Sequence record: EU863409 | Source: Escherichia phage JS10 | DNA: 64,000 nucleotides | Reading direction: 5' to 3' (one strand) | Part shown: positions 27,847 through 41,151 of the stretch, one piece after another | How positions within the stretch are numbered: position 1 is the first letter of the stretch | Layout of the letters: every line of letters starts with the position of its first letter | Position numbers and translations under genes: made by a program | The notes under the pieces: generated by a model | The model's input: only the letters and a program-made list of their open reading frames with translations | What the model was told of the DNA's origin: nothing | Database searches by the model: none

Positions 27847-27904
27847 AATGTTCTCCTCATGTTTGTGTAAGGTAATAGTACCACATCCTTGTGGTGTTGT
27901 AAAC
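27844..27904 (-). promoter_or_regulatory. early promoter cassette copy 2, with spacer hairpin ACCACA-TCCT-TGTGGT
   Basis: GTTTACA-N17-TACTAT ... ATGAGGAG-N6-ATG in front of ORF 27556..27846. Confidence 0.55.
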
Positions 27905-30027
27905 TACATTTTGAATTTATTTGGTAAAGAAGAGATGTCCAAAGATGCAGCAAGGATTTCCATAGCCTCATTACTTTCTGAAACAGATTCTGAAACTAGG
28001 AATTCTTTAAACCCATTCATCAATTTAACTTCACCGGTTTCCATCAGATGGTCGCCATCGTAAACGGACTCACTGAGTTCTGAAGGAGATGTCACTGTAG
28101 CTTCCATAAGGTATTTGTGAGATACTCTATCATTCATAGCAAAAGCCGCTACTTTATCAACCTTCAACAATAATCCGCGCGGAAGGATAATTTCTGCTTC
28201 TTCAGAATATTCCGTAAGGTCACCAGGAGCGATAACTTTAACTGCTTCAGCACCTCGAATAACCATACCGATTTCAGCAATCCTGTCTGCAGGGCCTTCA
28301 GGTGCAATTGGATTACCGAACTCATCTTCTTCCCATTCTACCTCTTCATCATCAACTTCACCTACGTCAGATGAACTACCACTAGCCAATTTAAACAACT
28401 CATCGGCGGAGGATAAAGAACCTTCATCACCAACAAAAACTGCTTGGTTGTCGAGGGCCATATAATTTTTACCAAATTCGCCAAAGATGTTAGGCTTTAA
28501 TGAAGCGGACACAAAGTTCTTAAAGTAAAATGTTTTGTTATCAATATTATGGCGTAGAATTTTGTATGGTAAATCCTGGCCACGATACAAAATAGTACCC
28601 TTAGGAAGTTTAATACCCTTAGTAAATGCTGAGTCTAAATCCTTAATCAATTTAATAGCTGTTGTATTGTTTTCGGATTCAGGTTTACCTAAAAGGAATA
28701 AGTTCATAGGAGCATATTCAGCTGCACAATATTCGATAATGGCATTACTTTCGTCTTTTGTCAAGCCCTTAGGTTTAATGAGCTCGCCTGAATAAGCATA
28801 CGCATCGCCAATAGAATCGTTAATTAGTTTATAAACGGCTTCCATAGCGAAAGCAATTCGGGATGCTTTCTCTGAAGGAGACCCCTGAAAACGGGCACTC
28901 AGGTTATTAACAATTCTCTTAATAATATCCAGACTATTGGTAGTATTGATTTGAGAAAGGCCGCTTAAAAGTCTATCGACTTCCGTATTAAAAAACGCCA
29001 TATTATTAGAGTAAATTTCAAACCCTTGTTTATCTCTATTAGCATAATTTAGTTTAAATTTACTATCAGTCATTAAAGCGTGCGTGAGAGCAATGGTGTA
29101 TCTAAAGTTGGCAAGGTCCTCACTCTTAGATTTAAACTGAGAGGCCTGTCGCATTTTAGTAATAGCACCTTTTTTAAAGTTCTGGCTAATCTGCTCAATA
29201 CCTTCGTTCTCAGGGCCTTCGGCCGAGTGAACAGGTACAGAAACTTCAAACTCGTTATAAACCTGCAATTCTTTAGGTGATAAAGTTTCAGGTTCGGCAG
29301 TAGAATACTGCGCTGCTGCAGCCATACGACGGGAAATTTTAGTACGAGAGATAACGGCCTTATCGGTACGTTTCTCTTCAACCTGTGCAATAGATGCCGC
29401 TACGGCTTCGACCTTACTTACGGCCTGTCCGGTTTTCTTAGAAACATAAACTTCACCGACTTTAGACTCAACCTTGGTATAAAGGTCCGCATCAATTTCA
29501 GGCATACCCTTGATATCTTCAATATTAGTGCCACGACGTGCTAAAAGAACGTATGTATGTTTACCACTAAACTGGAACATATCATCAACAACTTTAAACT
29601 TACCACCAGTACGAGCCATAGCCAAACGAGCTAATACACGCTGAACAGTAGGACCCTTACCTTTCATTTTCTTGGTAGGGAAACGGAACAAAACTGCATC
29701 CATTTTAAGTTTACTTACTTGTTCGTATATCGTATCGAAAATAGTATTCAATGCACCAAGAGGGTCAGAACCAAGGCCACCTTTGAGTTCAGCTGGAGCA
29801 CCCTTGCTCGACAAACTCATTAAAATAACATGAACGTATTTGTCGCCAGGCTTAACCATTTTAATAGCGTCTCCTTGAGACGCATAAGATACCATACGAG
29901 CAACAAGATTATCATTACCCGGTGCTTTAATAGAGAAAATCTGTGGGATACCGGAGCCCGGCTTAAGATTTGTTACTGGATAGTTTTTAGCGGAATCACT
30001 ATCAAAAACTTCGTTTAAATTTTCCAT
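27904..30027 (-). CDS. alt: Alt-like ADP-ribosyltransferase, paralogue B
   Basis: 707 aa; N-terminal about 200 aa collinear with paralogue A; ART motifs ILYRGQ (Arg), FVSAS (S-x-S), EEAEIILPRG (E-x-E). Confidence 0.8.
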   Translation of the reverse strand: MENLNEVFDSDSAKNYPVTNLKPGSGIPQIFSIKAPGNDNLVARMVSYASQGDAIKMVKPGDKYVHVILMSLSSKGAPAELKGGLGSDPLGALNTIFDTIYEQVSKLKMDAVLFRFPTKKMKGKGPTVQRVLARLAMARTGGKFKVVDDMFQFSGKHTYVLLARRGTNIEDIKGMPEIDADLYTKVESKVGEVYVSKKTGQAVSKVEAVAASIAQVEEKRTDKAVISRTKISRRMAAAAQYSTAEPETLSPKELQVYNEFEVSVPVHSAEGPENEGIEQISQNFKKGAITKMRQASQFKSKSEDLANFRYTIALTHALMTDSKFKLNYANRDKQGFEIYSNNMAFFNTEVDRLLSGLSQINTTNSLDIIKRIVNNLSARFQGSPSEKASRIAFAMEAVYKLINDSIGDAYAYSGELIKPKGLTKDESNAIIEYCAAEYAPMNLFLLGKPESENNTTAIKLIKDLDSAFTKGIKLPKGTILYRGQDLPYKILRHNIDNKTFYFKNFVSASLKPNIFGEFGKNYMALDNQAVFVGDEGSLSSADELFKLASGSSSDVGEVDDEEVEWEEDEFGNPIAPEGPADRIAEIGMVIRGAEAVKVIAPGDLTEYSEEAEIILPRGLLLKVDKVAAFAMNDRVSHKYLMEATVTSPSELSESVYDGDHLMETGEVKLMNGFKEFLVSESVSESNEAMEILAASLDISSLPNKFKM

Positions 30028-30030
30028 TAT

Positions 30031-32115
30031 TTACCCTTGGATGAATTTTTCTGGTATGTCATAGAGGTCTATGCATGAAGCCAAAAGAGGCAGTACGTCA
30101 AACCGTGTAGATTTAACAAATGAATCAAAAGATACAGGGCTTTCGGAAGTATCGAAGTCATCTTGGTATACGACCAACTCACCGGTTTCCATTAGTACGT
30201 CACCATCATACACTACAGATTCTTGAAGCTCATCCGTCGTCATAACTTCGGCTTGAACGAGTTTTGTATTACTAGATGTCGTTCCGTCATTATTAGAGGC
30301 ATCAGTTATTTTATTAACTTTGACCATCAATCCGCGTGGTAGAATAACTTCAGCTTCTGTTGCTATTCCAAGACTTCCTGGATATACCGCATTAACTTTA
30401 TGGGCTCCATCAATTGCCCATCCTATTTGAACTTTAACGTAATCAGGGTTTTCTTTATACGCTCTTATTTCATTAGGATTAATGGTTATTCCTTCTTCAT
30501 TTTTATCGACTGTCAATTCGTTGCGAACTTCCGGTTCTAAAAGACCAACCCCGGCATGTGTAACACCAAAACGTCCAAAAATGATAGGAGTCAGTGAAGT
30601 AGATACAAAATTTCTAAAATAAAATACCTTATTTTTAACTAGTGCTTCGTATATAGGAGCGGTCATACTCTGTGCACGATAAACTGTAATGCCTTCTGGT
30701 ATACGGTCACCATTTTCAAAAGCTGAATCAAGATTATTAACAGCAGATTCAATAGACCTTTCATTCATTACATCATAGTTCTGAGGATTATAACGTCCTA
30801 AAAGAAGATTATTGATGTCGGTATAACCTGAGCCGCAGTATTCTCTGATGCCGCGCTTTTGTGATGGGGTGTATTTAGAACCATCACGAGCGATAGTAAT
30901 ATCGACCATAATACCACCACCTACACCGGCAAAACTATAAATGCGTTTTTTAATGAACTTGGTCTTGGCCGCTTTCCACTTGGACTCGGTTAATTCATTC
31001 CAGACGTCGTCAGGTTGACCTTTACGAGTTTTGTTATGCATAGCCAGCCATTCGCCTTTATATTCTTCAAAAACCGTATTAATAACAGAGGCATATTTTT
31101 CTAGAGCTTTAACAGATGTCAAAGGTTCGTTTTTGATGGCTGTAAGAATTTTATCTTTAATTTTCTCTTGGATTTCACCTATACCGTGAAGAGGAAACAT
31201 TTTATATTCGTAATGCAATTCTTCAGCAGTGCCTTCAGCTACTATATTAGCAACTTTATTTTTAGCCGCAGGAGAATTGTTATTAGTGACCATTTCCTGT
31301 GCCTCAGGGATTAATGGAGCTGTTGCAGGTTTATTAAAATCTGCTGCAGTAGCTTCATATTTCTTAAACAGTTCACTTTCATTACGATAAGATTCTAAAG
31401 ACTGACTTGCTGCAATAGCGCGACGAGAAATCTTAGTCTTGGTTATAACCATTTTATCAGTGCGACGTTCTTCAACTTTAGCAATACTGCCGGCAATAGC
31501 AGTTTCTTTAGTAACCTGCACACCTTCTTTTTTAGAAATATAAACTTCACCAACATCAGAATCTACCTTAGTATACAATTCGGCATTAATTCCTGGCATA
31601 CCTTTGATATCTTCAATATCAGCTTGTTTACGAACTACTAGGATATAAGTATGTTTACCGGTAAATTGGTACATAGCCGGAACTACTTTGAAGCGTCCAC
31701 CAGTTTTTTGAGTTACCAGACGTTGGATAATCCGTTGGACAATAGGCCCTTGCCCTTTCATTTTCTTGGTTGGAAAACGGAACATCACAGCATCCATACG
31801 AAGCTTTTTAACTTGTTCGAATACTACGTCGAAAATGGTATTAATAGCATCAATAGGAGTAGGGCCTAAGCCGCCTTTAAGTTCGGCTGGAGAACCTTTA
31901 GCCGAAAGGCTCATAAGGATAACGTGGGCGTATTTATCACCTAATTTAACCTGTTTAATAGCATCGCCTTCAGAGGCATAAGATACCATACGAGCAACTA
32001 ATTGGGATTCGACATCACCAATCTTCCAAATCTGGGGTACTTTAAGTTTCGGGTTTAAGTTTACAGTAGGCAGCGTGCCTTCAGACTCAAACACTTCATT
32101 TAATTGTTCGGTCAT
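30031..32115 (-). CDS. alt: Alt-like ADP-ribosyltransferase, paralogue A
   Basis: 694 aa; ART motifs TVYRAQ, FVSTS, ATEAEVILPRG; 3-bp spacer to paralogue B. Confidence 0.8.
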   Translation of the reverse strand: MTEQLNEVFESEGTLPTVNLNPKLKVPQIWKIGDVESQLVARMVSYASEGDAIKQVKLGDKYAHVILMSLSAKGSPAELKGGLGPTPIDAINTIFDVVFEQVKKLRMDAVMFRFPTKKMKGQGPIVQRIIQRLVTQKTGGRFKVVPAMYQFTGKHTYILVVRKQADIEDIKGMPGINAELYTKVDSDVGEVYISKKEGVQVTKETAIAGSIAKVEERRTDKMVITKTKISRRAIAASQSLESYRNESELFKKYEATAADFNKPATAPLIPEAQEMVTNNNSPAAKNKVANIVAEGTAEELHYEYKMFPLHGIGEIQEKIKDKILTAIKNEPLTSVKALEKYASVINTVFEEYKGEWLAMHNKTRKGQPDDVWNELTESKWKAAKTKFIKKRIYSFAGVGGGIMVDITIARDGSKYTPSQKRGIREYCGSGYTDINNLLLGRYNPQNYDVMNERSIESAVNNLDSAFENGDRIPEGITVYRAQSMTAPIYEALVKNKVFYFRNFVSTSLTPIIFGRFGVTHAGVGLLEPEVRNELTVDKNEEGITINPNEIRAYKENPDYVKVQIGWAIDGAHKVNAVYPGSLGIATEAEVILPRGLMVKVNKITDASNNDGTTSSNTKLVQAEVMTTDELQESVVYDGDVLMETGELVVYQDDFDTSESPVSFDSFVKSTRFDVLPLLASCIDLYDIPEKFIQG

Positions 32116-32337: not shown

Positions 32338-33861
32338 TTATAGTCCAGTTTGAGACCAATCACCAAATACATCTTCAAATGTATCAGCTTCTGTTTTATC
32401 GAAACGCCAACCTTTAATAATTGGAAGGAAAATACCTACAGTATCAGTACGTCCTTTAGAATGAACCCAACCATTACATTCACAGTCAGCAATACGTCCA
32501 ATCAACTTACCTTCACGGGCTTGTTTCATAAGAAGTTCACGGTCTAAATCAGGACGGTCTTCTAATGGAATCAATACCTTTTTACCTGATTTATCTTTCT
32601 TATGGGTAGTATCTTTAAAACCTGAACCACAGTCAGATGTAATTCGACGACACCGCGATACCAGCTCGACACCACCAAGTTTGTTTGGGTCTTTAGAGTG
32701 TTCATAATAACCTACCACTTCTAAAGCGATATCGATTACTTCTTTGAACTTGATAAGATTCTTAGAACGGCGGTTTTCCCAGTAGGAGTCCATGTTCTTA
32801 AGGATAATACCTTCCAGGCCTTGGTCGACATATTTCTTATAAACAACTTTAGCTTCGTCAAGATTATTAACCCATTGGTTTTCGATAGCTTCAACACGCG
32901 TTGTACCATGCAATACGACATTATGAGCAACCATAAGTTCTAAGGCTGCAAAGCGTACATCATACTTATCGCCTTTAATTTTACCTTCGGAATATACGAC
33001 ATCCAATGGGACATAATCCCACGCCTGTAATACCATACCTGCTGCTTCGGTTGGAGTAATAGTTCCTTGAAGAGCCTTGTTAGCCAACCCGTTTGAAGTA
33101 GAACGATCGGCTACGGTTTGGAATTCCTTGGCTTTACTTAATTCAGGAAGTTCCTCATCAAACATACTAAACAAATCATTAGACGCTTTAGGTTCTACTT
33201 TAGGAGTGTGGTAAACTAATTCACCGTCAATCATAACACCATTAGGATGGCGCTGTCGAGCTTCTTCAGTCATGGCCATTAATTCAGCCGCCAAAAGATT
33301 AAGCCCTTGGTATTCATTACCACCGCGAGTAAGGAATGTTACGCCATCGTTACGAACTTCAGCAAAACAACGAGCACCGTCAGCTTTTAATTGGGCGAAC
33401 GCAGGCCATTTAATATTTTTCTTAATCAAATCTTCATCATAAGAACTAGCCAACATTTGAGGTTGTTCAGGGATTAAACCTTTCCAAACCTTGTTAGCAA
33501 TAGAAATCGATGCACCACATTCAAGGTCACGCATCATTACGCGACGTAATACCTCAGCGTCAGGACCCTTAGCATCGGCAATAATTTGGGCAAGCTCTTC
33601 AATAGCAGCATTACCCGTAATCTTACGGGTGGCTAATGTGAACTCGGCGAAATCAAGAAGGTCTTCAAGAGTAATCATACCAAAGGATTGAGACGTAAAT
33701 CCAGGTTCAGGCCACTTTTTAATACCGTAGTTTAAACGACGGGTATAAGCCATACGATATACACGTTTCAGAAGCTCGTTATCCTTTTCACGAGCAATAA
33801 TAGCTTCTTTAGATTTAGTAGAATCAATAGAAGCAATTTCGTTTAAAATATCTAAAATCAT
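32338..33861 (-). CDS. 30: ATP-dependent DNA ligase gp30
   Basis: 507 aa; adenylation motif KADGARC; position next to alt as in T4. Confidence 0.9.
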   Translation of the reverse strand: MILDILNEIASIDSTKSKEAIIAREKDNELLKRVYRMAYTRRLNYGIKKWPEPGFTSQSFGMITLEDLLDFAEFTLATRKITGNAAIEELAQIIADAKGPDAEVLRRVMMRDLECGASISIANKVWKGLIPEQPQMLASSYDEDLIKKNIKWPAFAQLKADGARCFAEVRNDGVTFLTRGGNEYQGLNLLAAELMAMTEEARQRHPNGVMIDGELVYHTPKVEPKASNDLFSMFDEELPELSKAKEFQTVADRSTSNGLANKALQGTITPTEAAGMVLQAWDYVPLDVVYSEGKIKGDKYDVRFAALELMVAHNVVLHGTTRVEAIENQWVNNLDEAKVVYKKYVDQGLEGIILKNMDSYWENRRSKNLIKFKEVIDIALEVVGYYEHSKDPNKLGGVELVSRCRRITSDCGSGFKDTTHKKDKSGKKVLIPLEDRPDLDRELLMKQAREGKLIGRIADCECNGWVHSKGRTDTVGIFLPIIKGWRFDKTEADTFEDVFGDWSQTGL

Positions 33862-34121
33862 TTTACCGTCCTTACAGTTTGTGTACTTCTATTATAAGCT
33901 ACTTCATCTAAAAGCTCATTTAAAGTTTTGTGATACGATATAATACGCTTATCTTTAATATCATATTCAGTAACATACATAAATCCACGCCGAACACATT
34001 GGATAAAGATATCTTCATCTTTGGCTTGGAAATATACAGGATTCAATCGAAGGAATTGTCTAAAGTTTCCATAATCATGGGATTTAGGGATTCCATCAGT
34101 AATAGTATGAACAACAAACAT
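33858..34121 (-). CDS. hypothetical protein (30.1-like position)
   Basis: ORF 33858..34154; ATG at 34121 with GAGG RBS, just after the upstream stop. Confidence 0.4.
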   Translation of the reverse strand: MFVVHTITDGIPKSHDYGNFRQFLRLNPVYFQAKDEDIFIQCVRRGFMYVTEYDIKDKRIISYHKTLNELLDEVAYNRSTQTVRTVK

Positions 34122-34122
34122 A

Positions 34123-34761
34123 TTAACCTCGTGCAATCCATTCAACGGCTGCATTATTACGAAGGGATTCGATTGCTGCGATATCGTCCCATGAATTAAC
34201 CTTTACGGCTAAATTAGGTTTAAAGTCGCGTTCACCACGGGCTAACCAATAAACTTGGATATCCATGAGAATATTAGATGCAGCATCACAGTGGTGAGCC
34301 AAATCGTCAACATAAAACTTAATGCGTTTGCCGTACGTATTTTTAGCTCTTATGAACAGGTCTTCTTTTGATTCTGAATGACCACACATCAGAATCTCCT
34401 TGAATGCGCCAGGGAACAAAGCATTCAAATTGAATTGTCTATTCAGCAGAGCATCAATTGAGTCGCCTAGCGCAGTCACGGCCACAAAATCGAAGTCTTT
34501 TTTGAGCTTGTTGATGTGTTTTAATGCGTCCATGTAAGGGGACAGATAACGAATAAAATCCGACTGATTATATTTCTCAATTAAACGTGCGCCTAATTCG
34601 TCGTCACAATTAAACAGTTCGCCTGGAGATAAGAAACGTTCGTCCTGAATCATATTCAAAATATGTTCTAAAGGCAAATTATATTTCTGTGCGAAATAAG
34701 GCAAGCCGGACTGCCAACTTAAACATACTCCATCGATATCTGTTAAGATAACTGGTTTCAT
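34123..34761 (-). CDS. HAD-superfamily phosphatase-like protein
   Basis: 212 aa; N-terminal LTDIDGV (HAD motif I) and FYVDD near the C-terminus. Confidence 0.55.
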   Translation of the reverse strand: MKPVILTDIDGVCLSWQSGLPYFAQKYNLPLEHILNMIQDERFLSPGELFNCDDELGARLIEKYNQSDFIRYLSPYMDALKHINKLKKDFDFVAVTALGDSIDALLNRQFNLNALFPGAFKEILMCGHSESKEDLFIRAKNTYGKRIKFYVDDLAHHCDAASNILMDIQVYWLARGERDFKPNLAVKVNSWDDIAAIESLRNNAAVEWIARG

Positions 34762-35225
34762 AATAAATCTCTCAATTTGTTTAGGATGTCGATAAACTCT
34801 TTTTCAGTTAGTATTGTATCACATTCTTTGAGGTGGCTTGCCATTGAATGCTTTAAAACCTTACCTTTAGTGGCTTGTAAAGCTTCTCGGAATCCTTTGT
34901 TCTGGAGCGCTGCTTCAAAATACGCACTTTCGTAAAGCTCTTTCCACGCTTCGGAATATCTTGAAAACGGGGTTCCAAGCCAGAACAACGTGCCACGGTC
35001 CTGAGCTCTAGCATAAGCTCGTCCAGCTTTTTGCGCGTCTAACCCGGACATCCTAAATATACGTCTTTGTTGTTCAACATTTTTCACCTTACACCCTTGG
35101 AGGAATCCTTCGAGTCCACCAAATTGGATACCATCCATAACGAAAGGCCATTTAGCAAAGTTACTTAATGCACATGATGGCCACGGAAAGTTACTTCTAA
35201 TTTCTAACTCAGACATCTTTGACAC
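34758..35225 (-). CDS. NADAR/YbiA-family (DUF1768-like) protein, 30.3-like
   Basis: 155 aa; LSNFAKWPFVMDG...F segment resembles E. coli YbiA (DFSNFAAWPIKVDG) as recalled. Confidence 0.5.
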   Translation of the reverse strand: MSKMSELEIRSNFPWPSCALSNFAKWPFVMDGIQFGGLEGFLQGCKVKNVEQQRRIFRMSGLDAQKAGRAYARAQDRGTLFWLGTPFSRYSEAWKELYESAYFEAALQNKGFREALQATKGKVLKHSMASHLKECDTILTEKEFIDILNKLRDLL

Positions 35226-35424
35226 TTATAATTTCAACATCGGCCCAATAACCATAACCCGGCAGTCGGTCTTCAATGGATAAACCACCGTCATGTTTAG
35301 GCATTTTAATTGTCATGATATAAGGTTCTAAATGGTCCGCCGTATGAGGAGAAACATCAGTCACACGATAAGTCACTTCAACCATTTCCGTACCTAACAA
35401 TTTCTGAATCAGTTTCTTAACCAT
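35209..35424 (-). CDS. hypothetical protein
   Basis: 71-aa ORF in a tight minus-strand gene array. Confidence 0.4.
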   Translation of the reverse strand: MVKKLIQKLLGTEMVEVTYRVTDVSPHTADHLEPYIMTIKMPKHDGGLSIEDRLPGYGYWADVEIISVKDV

Positions 35425-35907: not shown

Positions 35908-35966
35908 AATATTTTTTCCTCATCAGTTGATAGGTCTATAGTATCATGCCTACTGGAGATGTATAC
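35905..35966 (-). promoter_or_regulatory. early promoter cassette copy 3
   Basis: GTATACA-N16-TACTATAGACCTATCAAC ... ATGAGGAAAAAATATT-ATG. Confidence 0.5.
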
Positions 35967-35983: not shown

Positions 35984-36001
35984 GAAACAAAAATGGGACT
36001 C
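35984..36001 (-). terminator. hairpin GGGACTC-CGAA-GAGTCCC
   Basis: perfect 7-bp stem, followed by ATTTTT on the minus strand, directly 3' of the 53-aa ORF. Confidence 0.55.
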
Positions 36002-36017
36002 CGAAGAGTCCCATAAC

Positions 36018-39929: not shown

Positions 39930-39930
<1 letters not shown>
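39733..39930 (-). CDS. hypothetical protein, translationally coupled to pseT
   Basis: ORF 39733..39960; ATG at 39930 overlaps the pseT stop (TAATG); GGGGA RBS. Confidence 0.35.

Positions 39931-41151
<1,221 letters not shown>

Follow-up and report, generated by a model that had tools for sequence, protein, structure and literature searches.

An AdfN ortholog and a probable NT5C-like HAD phosphatase encoded by overlapping genes beside the DNA ligase of a JS98-like coliphage

Two overlapping genes in the 64,000-nucleotide stretch of phage DNA analysed here (the window) are best explained jointly, with a probability that we put at roughly 80%, as encoding an ortholog of the T4 anti-DarT factor AdfN (gene 30.3) and a phosphatase resembling the NT5C nucleotidases (gene 30.2), that is, as two early accessory genes that would be co-transcribed but act independently of each other, and whose adjacency to the DNA ligase and Alt genes would be inherited T-even gene order. 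The window comes from a JS98-like T4-type coliphage (Straboviridae, Tevenvirinae, Dhakavirus); the 1.7 kb around genes 30.2 and 30.3 share 99% DNA identity with Escherichia phages MN04, NC-G, and JS98, and the gene order is that of the JS98 annotation, altB-altA-alt.1-30-30.1-30.2-30.3-30.4-30.5-30.6, with every gene from altB through 30.6 on the (-) strand (Table 1). The ligase and the two Alt-type ADP-ribosyltransferases that a first-pass annotation of the sequence had placed in the neighbourhood are indeed found there. Genes 30.6 through 30 are tightly packed and devoid of intergenic signals, and a promoter and terminator scan over these genes returned no separating element, promoter-like sites being rarer than in shuffled sequences.

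Several local features of the region deserve mention. A terminator-like hairpin (36014..35993, (-)) is located almost directly after 30.6 and is followed by 30.9, and, relative to JS98, ~842 bp carrying genes 30.7 and 30.8 are missing at window positions 35915..35934. In the altA-like ORF (30031..32115), ~1.1 kb at 30258..31353 gives no blastn alignment to JS98 and has flanks that are 97% identical, marking it as a diverged or replaced segment of one of the tandem Alt paralogs. The likeliest start ATG of gene 30.1 sits one base past the 30.2 stop (TAAtATG), and the 98-aa mechanical ORF of 30.1, which extends up to 34154, is an over-extension. Finally, another reading frame within adfN holds a 53-aa ORF (34853..35014, (-)).

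Table 1. Coordinates of the genes discussed, in window positions
Feature	Position	Strand	Description
Gene 30.3 (adfN ortholog by sequence)	34758..35216	(-)	Phage-type NADAR, 152 aa from the probable start ATG 35216
Gene 30.2	34123..34761	(-)	Predicted C1-capped HAD-superfamily phosphatase, 212 aa, NT5C-like branch
Gene 30.4	35209..35424	(-)	71 aa, PHROG 2042 (E 6.3e-35); directly upstream of adfN
Gene 30.1	33858..34121	(-)	DUF3045 protein gp30.1; likeliest start ATG 34121
Gene 30	32338..33861	(-)	DNA ligase (ATP-dependent)
Alt-type ADP-ribosyltransferases, tandem pair	27904..30027 and 30031..32115	(-)	
PseT	39930..40838		

Both ORFs are present where the first-pass annotation had drawn them (34123..34761 and 34758..35225), on the (-) strand, which it had left unstated, and the motifs that it had picked out can be read in the translations: the 212-aa ORF 34123..34761 starts MKPVILTDIDGVCLSW, with the DIDGV motif, and includes YVDD within KFYVDDLAHH, while ORF 34758..35225 contains the SNFAKWP...DG string as ALSNFAKWPFVMDGIQFGGLEGFLQGCK. 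When 50,697 phage records were searched by tblastn, the gp30.2 HAD protein was matched in 1446 and the gp30.3 NADAR protein in 1509 of them, in both cases almost all T4-type myoviruses, and the host distributions of the two sets of matches are almost identical. Given conservation this wide, neither ORF is a product of chance. The GTG at 35225 (155 aa) is the start of 30.3 only in the mechanical ORF sense; the true start is probably the ATG at 35216, giving 152 aa, because this choice agrees with the T4 and JS98 annotations and with the 152-aa cluster representative P0121. The same ATG recreates the 8-nt overlap of 30.3 with gene 30.4 that is seen in T4 (ATGTCTGA). At the other end of the gene, the 30.3 stop and the 30.2 start share an ATGA (34758-34761), again as in T4.

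As to family, gp30.3 matches Pfam PF08010 (Phage_30_3) over residues 15-153 with 219 bits (cutoff 36, E 2.3e-65) and aligns without gaps to all 152 aa of T4 gp30.3 at 85% identity (i.e., 23 substitutions). The Pfam search gave no match to PF08719 (NADAR/DUF1768) at E ≤ 1, and the matches to other NADAR-like entries are sub-threshold: TIGR02464 ("riboflavin biosynthesis intermediates N-glycosidase"; NCBIfam) at E 0.037, and YbiA at E 0.78 and 0.062 in PDB sequence searches with the protein and the family profile. Because phmmer and hmmsearch runs of both proteins and of their family profiles against the PDB sequences yielded sub-threshold matches only, structure prediction was needed. The gp30.3 model (pLDDT 93.9), based on a 40-sequence alignment of database relatives, has the NADAR fold, in which two small beta-hairpins flank a helical core. 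The catalytic residues Glu36 and Lys43 (T4 numbering) are kept (LEGFLQGCK); across three gp30.3 alignments E36 is invariant and K43 is either invariant or at least 90% conserved. H123 (VLKHS) is likewise unchanged throughout the three; it falls on the last predicted strand (E120-122) or immediately beyond it. The C-terminal helix is intact, the T4 alignment reaching 152/152 and the model placing a helix at residues 138-151.

The proposal that 34758..35225 encodes a YbiA/NADAR (DUF1768) protein therefore holds for the fold and the catalytic residues and fails for the sequence profile, PF08719 being replaced by PF08010. Taken literally, failure to match DUF1768 is an outcome that the first-pass annotation had named as counting against NADAR membership, but we consider it overridden by the fold evidence. 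The gp30.3 family is very large, comprising no fewer than 7372 clusters when grouped at 90% identity, and some of its members carry sub-threshold or precomputed PF08719 matches. By its sequence, the window gp30.3 is the ortholog of T4 AdfN.

T4 gene 30.3 has been renamed adfN, for anti-DarT factor NADAR (Johannesman et al., Nat Commun 2025, PMC11825919). T-even phages need AdfN to resist DarTG1, and it suffices for this resistance; in purified form it strips ADP-ribose from DarT1-modified DNA, and its function is impaired by E36A, by K43A, and by loss of the C-terminal helix, as in a natural RB69 frameshift; against the thymine-modifying DarTG2 it is inactive (PMC11825919). An independent study reported guanine-ADPr hydrolysis in vitro by T4 gp30.3 and described, as the hallmark of phage NADARs, a His in the last strand in place of the YbiA Glu or the DarG1 Asp (Toxins 2024, PMC11125620). 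In a transposon library, T4 30.3 insertions fall 150-fold under DarTG1 (log2FC -7.25) and stay level under DarTG2 (0.03) (HIDEN-SEQ preprint, 10.1101/2025.11.20.689424). Outside T-even infection, AdfN-T4 fails to rescue E. coli from DarT1; it works fully only in T-even infection, and another T-even protein, or the setting of such an infection, may be needed (PMC11825919).

The window and T4 proteins have in common the PF08010 domain, E36/K43/His123, the C-terminal helix, and 85% identity, and the two loci share the order 30.4-30.3-30.2-30.1-30 together with the start/stop overlaps; they differ by the 23 substitutions and in genus (Tequatrovirus for T4, Dhakavirus for the window). DarG1-type NADAR antitoxins (Geobacter lovleyi, 8bat; E. 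coli C7; Schuller et al., 2023, PMC11543638) are far more distant, at ~15% identity. They are encoded in DarT1-NADAR operons, whereas gp30.3 is an orphan without a cognate toxin, and their last-strand catalytic residue is an Asp where gp30.3 has a His; T4 AdfN cannot stand in for DarG1 in uninfected cells. By analogy with T4, host DarT1 would ADP-ribosylate guanine in the phage DNA and thereby block replication, AdfN would hydrolyse the N-glycosidic guanine-ADP-ribose bond by means of the Glu36/Lys43 pair and the phage-specific His123, and release of the ADP-ribose would restore replicable DNA and let the phage escape DarTG1. We infer that the window AdfN behaves like its T4 counterpart, both in enzyme activity and in anti-DarTG1 phenotype. 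The first-pass guess that the NADAR gene could counter host DNA-ADP-ribosylating DarT toxins has thus proved right through the T4 ortholog (PMC11825919, PMC11125620, HIDEN-SEQ), but it is a re-discovery of what is already published for T4 AdfN; for the role in nucleotide salvage offered alongside it, we found no evidence.

Many coliphage homologs of gp30.3 (P0133-P0141) are truncated or fused to adjoining ORFs, with lengths of 86-154 aa; some of these have extra Pfam matches, and they resemble the inactivating RB69 frameshift. Sequence comparison suggests that loss of adfN is frequent in coliphages.

Besides adfN, the sole T4 gene significantly depleted under DarTG1 is 30.4 (log2FC -1.79, adjusted p 0.014; HIDEN-SEQ Data S6, 10.1101/2025.11.20.689424). 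Because the end of 30.4 and the start of adfN share 8 nt, the depletion may be a polar effect of 30.4 insertions on 30.3. Alternatively, 30.4 could be the T-even factor that AdfN reportedly needs.

The second protein, gp30.2, carries the four catalytic motifs and the core of the HAD superfamily, so the HAD-like phosphatase assignment made for 34123..34761 at first pass stands. The motifs are D8-I-D10-G-V (motif I), T96 (II), K132 (III), and D152-D153 (IV); among 39 homologs, D8, D10, K132, and D152-D153 are invariant and T96 is at least 90% conserved, as are the cap residues W16, S18, Y64, N65, S67, R108, and N111. The predicted structure (pLDDT 94.9) consists of a Rossmannoid HAD core and a cap module, the latter a four-helix insert located directly after motif I (residues ~14-70), that is, a C1 cap. 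Identity to T4 gp30.2 is 75% over 194 aa, and the ~70-aa C-terminal tail of the T4 protein is absent; a variable C-terminal tail of 70-130 aa with a conserved G[IV]EYL..(R/Q)PT motif is found in many gp30.2 homologs, including that of T4.

When a gp30.2 profile was run against 1.84 billion representatives, 1109 relatives (50%-identity cluster representatives) emerged, and the core HAD motif set is retained in the 65 distant relatives that were sampled. The family most often matched by these in Pfam is NT5C (24/65, best E 4.2e-10). gp30.2 itself scores 12.9 bits against NT5C (PF06941), below the cutoff of 24.8 (E 0.1), and the profile of the 39 homologs reaches cdN in the PDB at E 0.71 only. 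A structure search with the gp30.2 model recovers HAD-fold proteins, NT5C-like ones ranking first or close to it, and viral proteins of similar structure often bear the name 5' nucleotidase. With the NT5C enzymes (human cdN/mdN, S. epidermidis 3bwv, PBS1 Dtm), which are among its structural neighbours, gp30.2 shares the HAD core with a helical C1 cap, the DxDGV form of motif I, and an aromatic residue at +8 (W16 in gp30.2, F in mouse cdN), although sequence identity is only 14-16%. We read gp30.2 as probably nearest to the 5'(3')-deoxyribonucleotidases of the NT5C branch. Its fold and active site fit an active Mg2+-dependent NT5C-like phosphomonoesterase of small molecules, and the likeliest reaction would be dephosphorylation of a (deoxy)nucleoside monophosphate or of a comparable small phospho-sugar.

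Among phage enzymes of the NT5C family, dTMP phosphatase activity has been proven for PBS1 Dtm (PMC12697855). A base-exclusion role is not evident for gp30.2, since the gp30.2 family occurs in T4-type phages of many host genera. Our literature search found no work on gp30.2 and no assay of any gp30.2 homolog. The longer gp30.2 profile hits (P0143, P0186, P0194, P0239) contain no Pfam domain besides HAD, and no natural HAD-NADAR fusion occurs among the gp30.2 profile matches. In T4, 30.2 is non-essential in K-12, with 72/72 TA sites hit, and the corresponding log2FC values are -0.12 (p 0.61) under DarTG1, 0.00 under DarTG2, and -0.10 in LB versus M9 (HIDEN-SEQ, 10.1101/2025.11.20.689424).

To what extent the two genes belong together can be judged from 85 loci that carry a gp30.3-type NADAR, 80 of them from IMG/VR and the others from T4 and four further annotated phages. 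A gp30.2-type HAD gene lies within 6 kb of the NADAR gene in 23 of them and is absent from that interval in the remaining 62. Among the 23, it is directly downstream in 17 (T-even and Acinetobacter phages) and 700-900 bp off in five; in the rest of the 85 loci, the neighbours of the NADAR gene are unrelated and highly variable. The 30.3/30.2 ATGA overlap is common to T4, JS98, and the Acinetobacter phages. KVP40-like Vibrio phages (Schizotequatrovirus) have a true 30.2 ortholog beside the ligase and ART genes, and their 30.3 adjoins gene 47; here, the relocated NADAR gene is followed by an overlapping, canonical PF06941 NT5C gene (E 4.6e-11). This arrangement, which is kept across 49 KVP40-like Vibrio phages (V09, L004:4007-4961, and 48 others; L087, L088), is a second, independent NADAR-nucleotidase adjacency. 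Together with the ATGA overlaps, it hints at some linkage that is not captured by the T4 fitness data. Along with the depletion of 30.4 under DarTG1, it leaves a small probability for a linkage that screens in K-12 would not reveal.

One way to read this linkage is that gp30.2-type NT5C-like phosphatases are uncharacterised nucleotide-pool or counter-defence enzymes that are recurrently coupled to phage NADARs. We regard this as unlikely, although an NT5C-like HAD gene directly after the NADAR gene in two independent forms (gp30.2 and the PF06941 protein) argues for it. If it were true, the phosphatase might dispose of a toxic or modified mononucleotide, e.g., ADP-ribosylated dGMP from damaged DNA, or its target might alternatively be a nucleotide analogue generated by a defence system, and the T4 fitness screens, run on defence-poor K-12, would have missed such a role.

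The neighbouring ligase gene invites a different reading, namely that gp30.2 is a polynucleotide-end phosphatase that readies nicks for the gene 30 ligase. The gp30.2 model, with its four-helix C1 cap and invariant cap residues, makes this improbable; HAD caps reportedly close over small substrates, and polymer-end enzymes such as Pnkp are said to be capless, as laid out by Burroughs et al. in 2006. The T4 PseT (Pnkp) 3'-phosphatase, which acts on polynucleotide ends, is capless, whereas gp30.2 has a C1 cap and no kinase domain, and the Pnkp match to gp30.2 spans only 125 core residues. Moreover, the phage already encodes PseT, and T4 30.2 is without fitness effect.

A direct partnership would make gp30.2 and AdfN a two-step module, gp30.2 acting either as a cofactor or as the enzyme that processes the ADP-ribose set free by AdfN, or a phosphorylated form of it. 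The ATGA overlap here and in T4, the direct adjacency in 17 T-even and Acinetobacter-phage loci, the nearly identical genome-level distributions of 30.2 and 30.3, and the different NT5C-family HAD gene that directly follows the NADAR gene in KVP40-like phages all speak for such a module, and the literature leaves room for a missing T-even cofactor of AdfN. However, under DarTG1, T4 30.2 is neutral (log2FC -0.12, p 0.61), to be compared with the 150-fold drop of 30.3, implying that gp30.2 is not required for AdfN function. The HAD gene is also missing within 6 kb in 62/85 NADAR loci, the true 30.2 ortholog stands apart from 30.3 in KVP40-like phages, and the profile matches include no natural HAD-NADAR fusion. 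ADP-ribose, moreover, is a pyrophosphate diester that presents no phosphomonoester substrate to a HAD phosphatase, which likewise counts against the module. For DarTG1, the module is largely refuted, and in general we consider it quite improbable. As a candidate for the missing T-even cofactor of AdfN specifically, gp30.2 was rejected, given its neutrality under DarTG1 and an adjacency that is limited to certain lineages.

Turning to gp30.3, it is very improbable that the NADAR protein acts mainly on soluble substrates (YbiA-like riboflavin-pathway N-glycosides or ADP-ribose-derived immune signals) with DNA as a secondary target. The weak TIGR02464 match (E 0.037) fits such a role, and soluble ADPr derivatives have been favoured as substrates of phage NADARs (Iyer et al., 2022), but the genetics and biochemistry of T4 AdfN indicate DNA guanine-ADPr, the gp30.3 subfamily carries a His where YbiA-type proteins have a Glu, and T4 30.3 insertions behave neutrally when LB and M9 are compared. 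Compared with YbiA and the Phytophthora NADAR (2b3w, 8bau), gp30.3 is sub-threshold for PF08719 and has neither the YbiA-type Glu nor the C-terminal glycine-rich segment; YbiA has been linked to riboflavin-intermediate N-glycosidase activity and gives no in vivo protection against DarT1 (PMC11125620).

Least probable of all is that the NADAR protein is tied to the phage ADP-ribosyltransferases (Alt, ModA, ModB), erasing or tuning their modifications of host protein or RNA: two Alt paralogs are encoded 2.6-7 kb off and early co-expression of T4-like NADARs with ARTs has been noted (Iyer et al., 2022), but guanine-ADPr in DNA is the substrate of every NADAR tested, T4 gp30.3 among them, whereas Alt is described as an RNA polymerase ADP-ribosylase and so as a modifier of protein, T4 alt is neutral under DarTG1 (log2FC -0.01) and 30.3 is neutral without DarTG1, most NADAR loci have no ART nearby, and KVP40-like phages carry the NADAR gene at another place, apart from Alt and the ligase. 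On the strength of the T4 fitness data and the KVP40-like relocation, we reject a functional link between the NADAR gene and the Alt genes, whose closeness the first-pass annotation had called notable; with T4 alt neutral under DarTG1, the proximity of Alt reflects synteny, not function.

With an AdfN ortholog and an NT5C-like phosphatase as independent accessory genes remaining the preferred reading, gp30.2 stands out as a protein with intact catalytic motifs that is kept in ~1,450 sequenced phages although T4 30.2 insertions show no phenotype. Identifying its substrate would close a minor gap in the understanding of T4, and we do not expect it to overturn the present picture. For gp30.3, a direct transfer from T4 AdfN predicts DarTG1 resistance in a JS98-like phage, which may help in choosing or engineering therapeutic coliphages.
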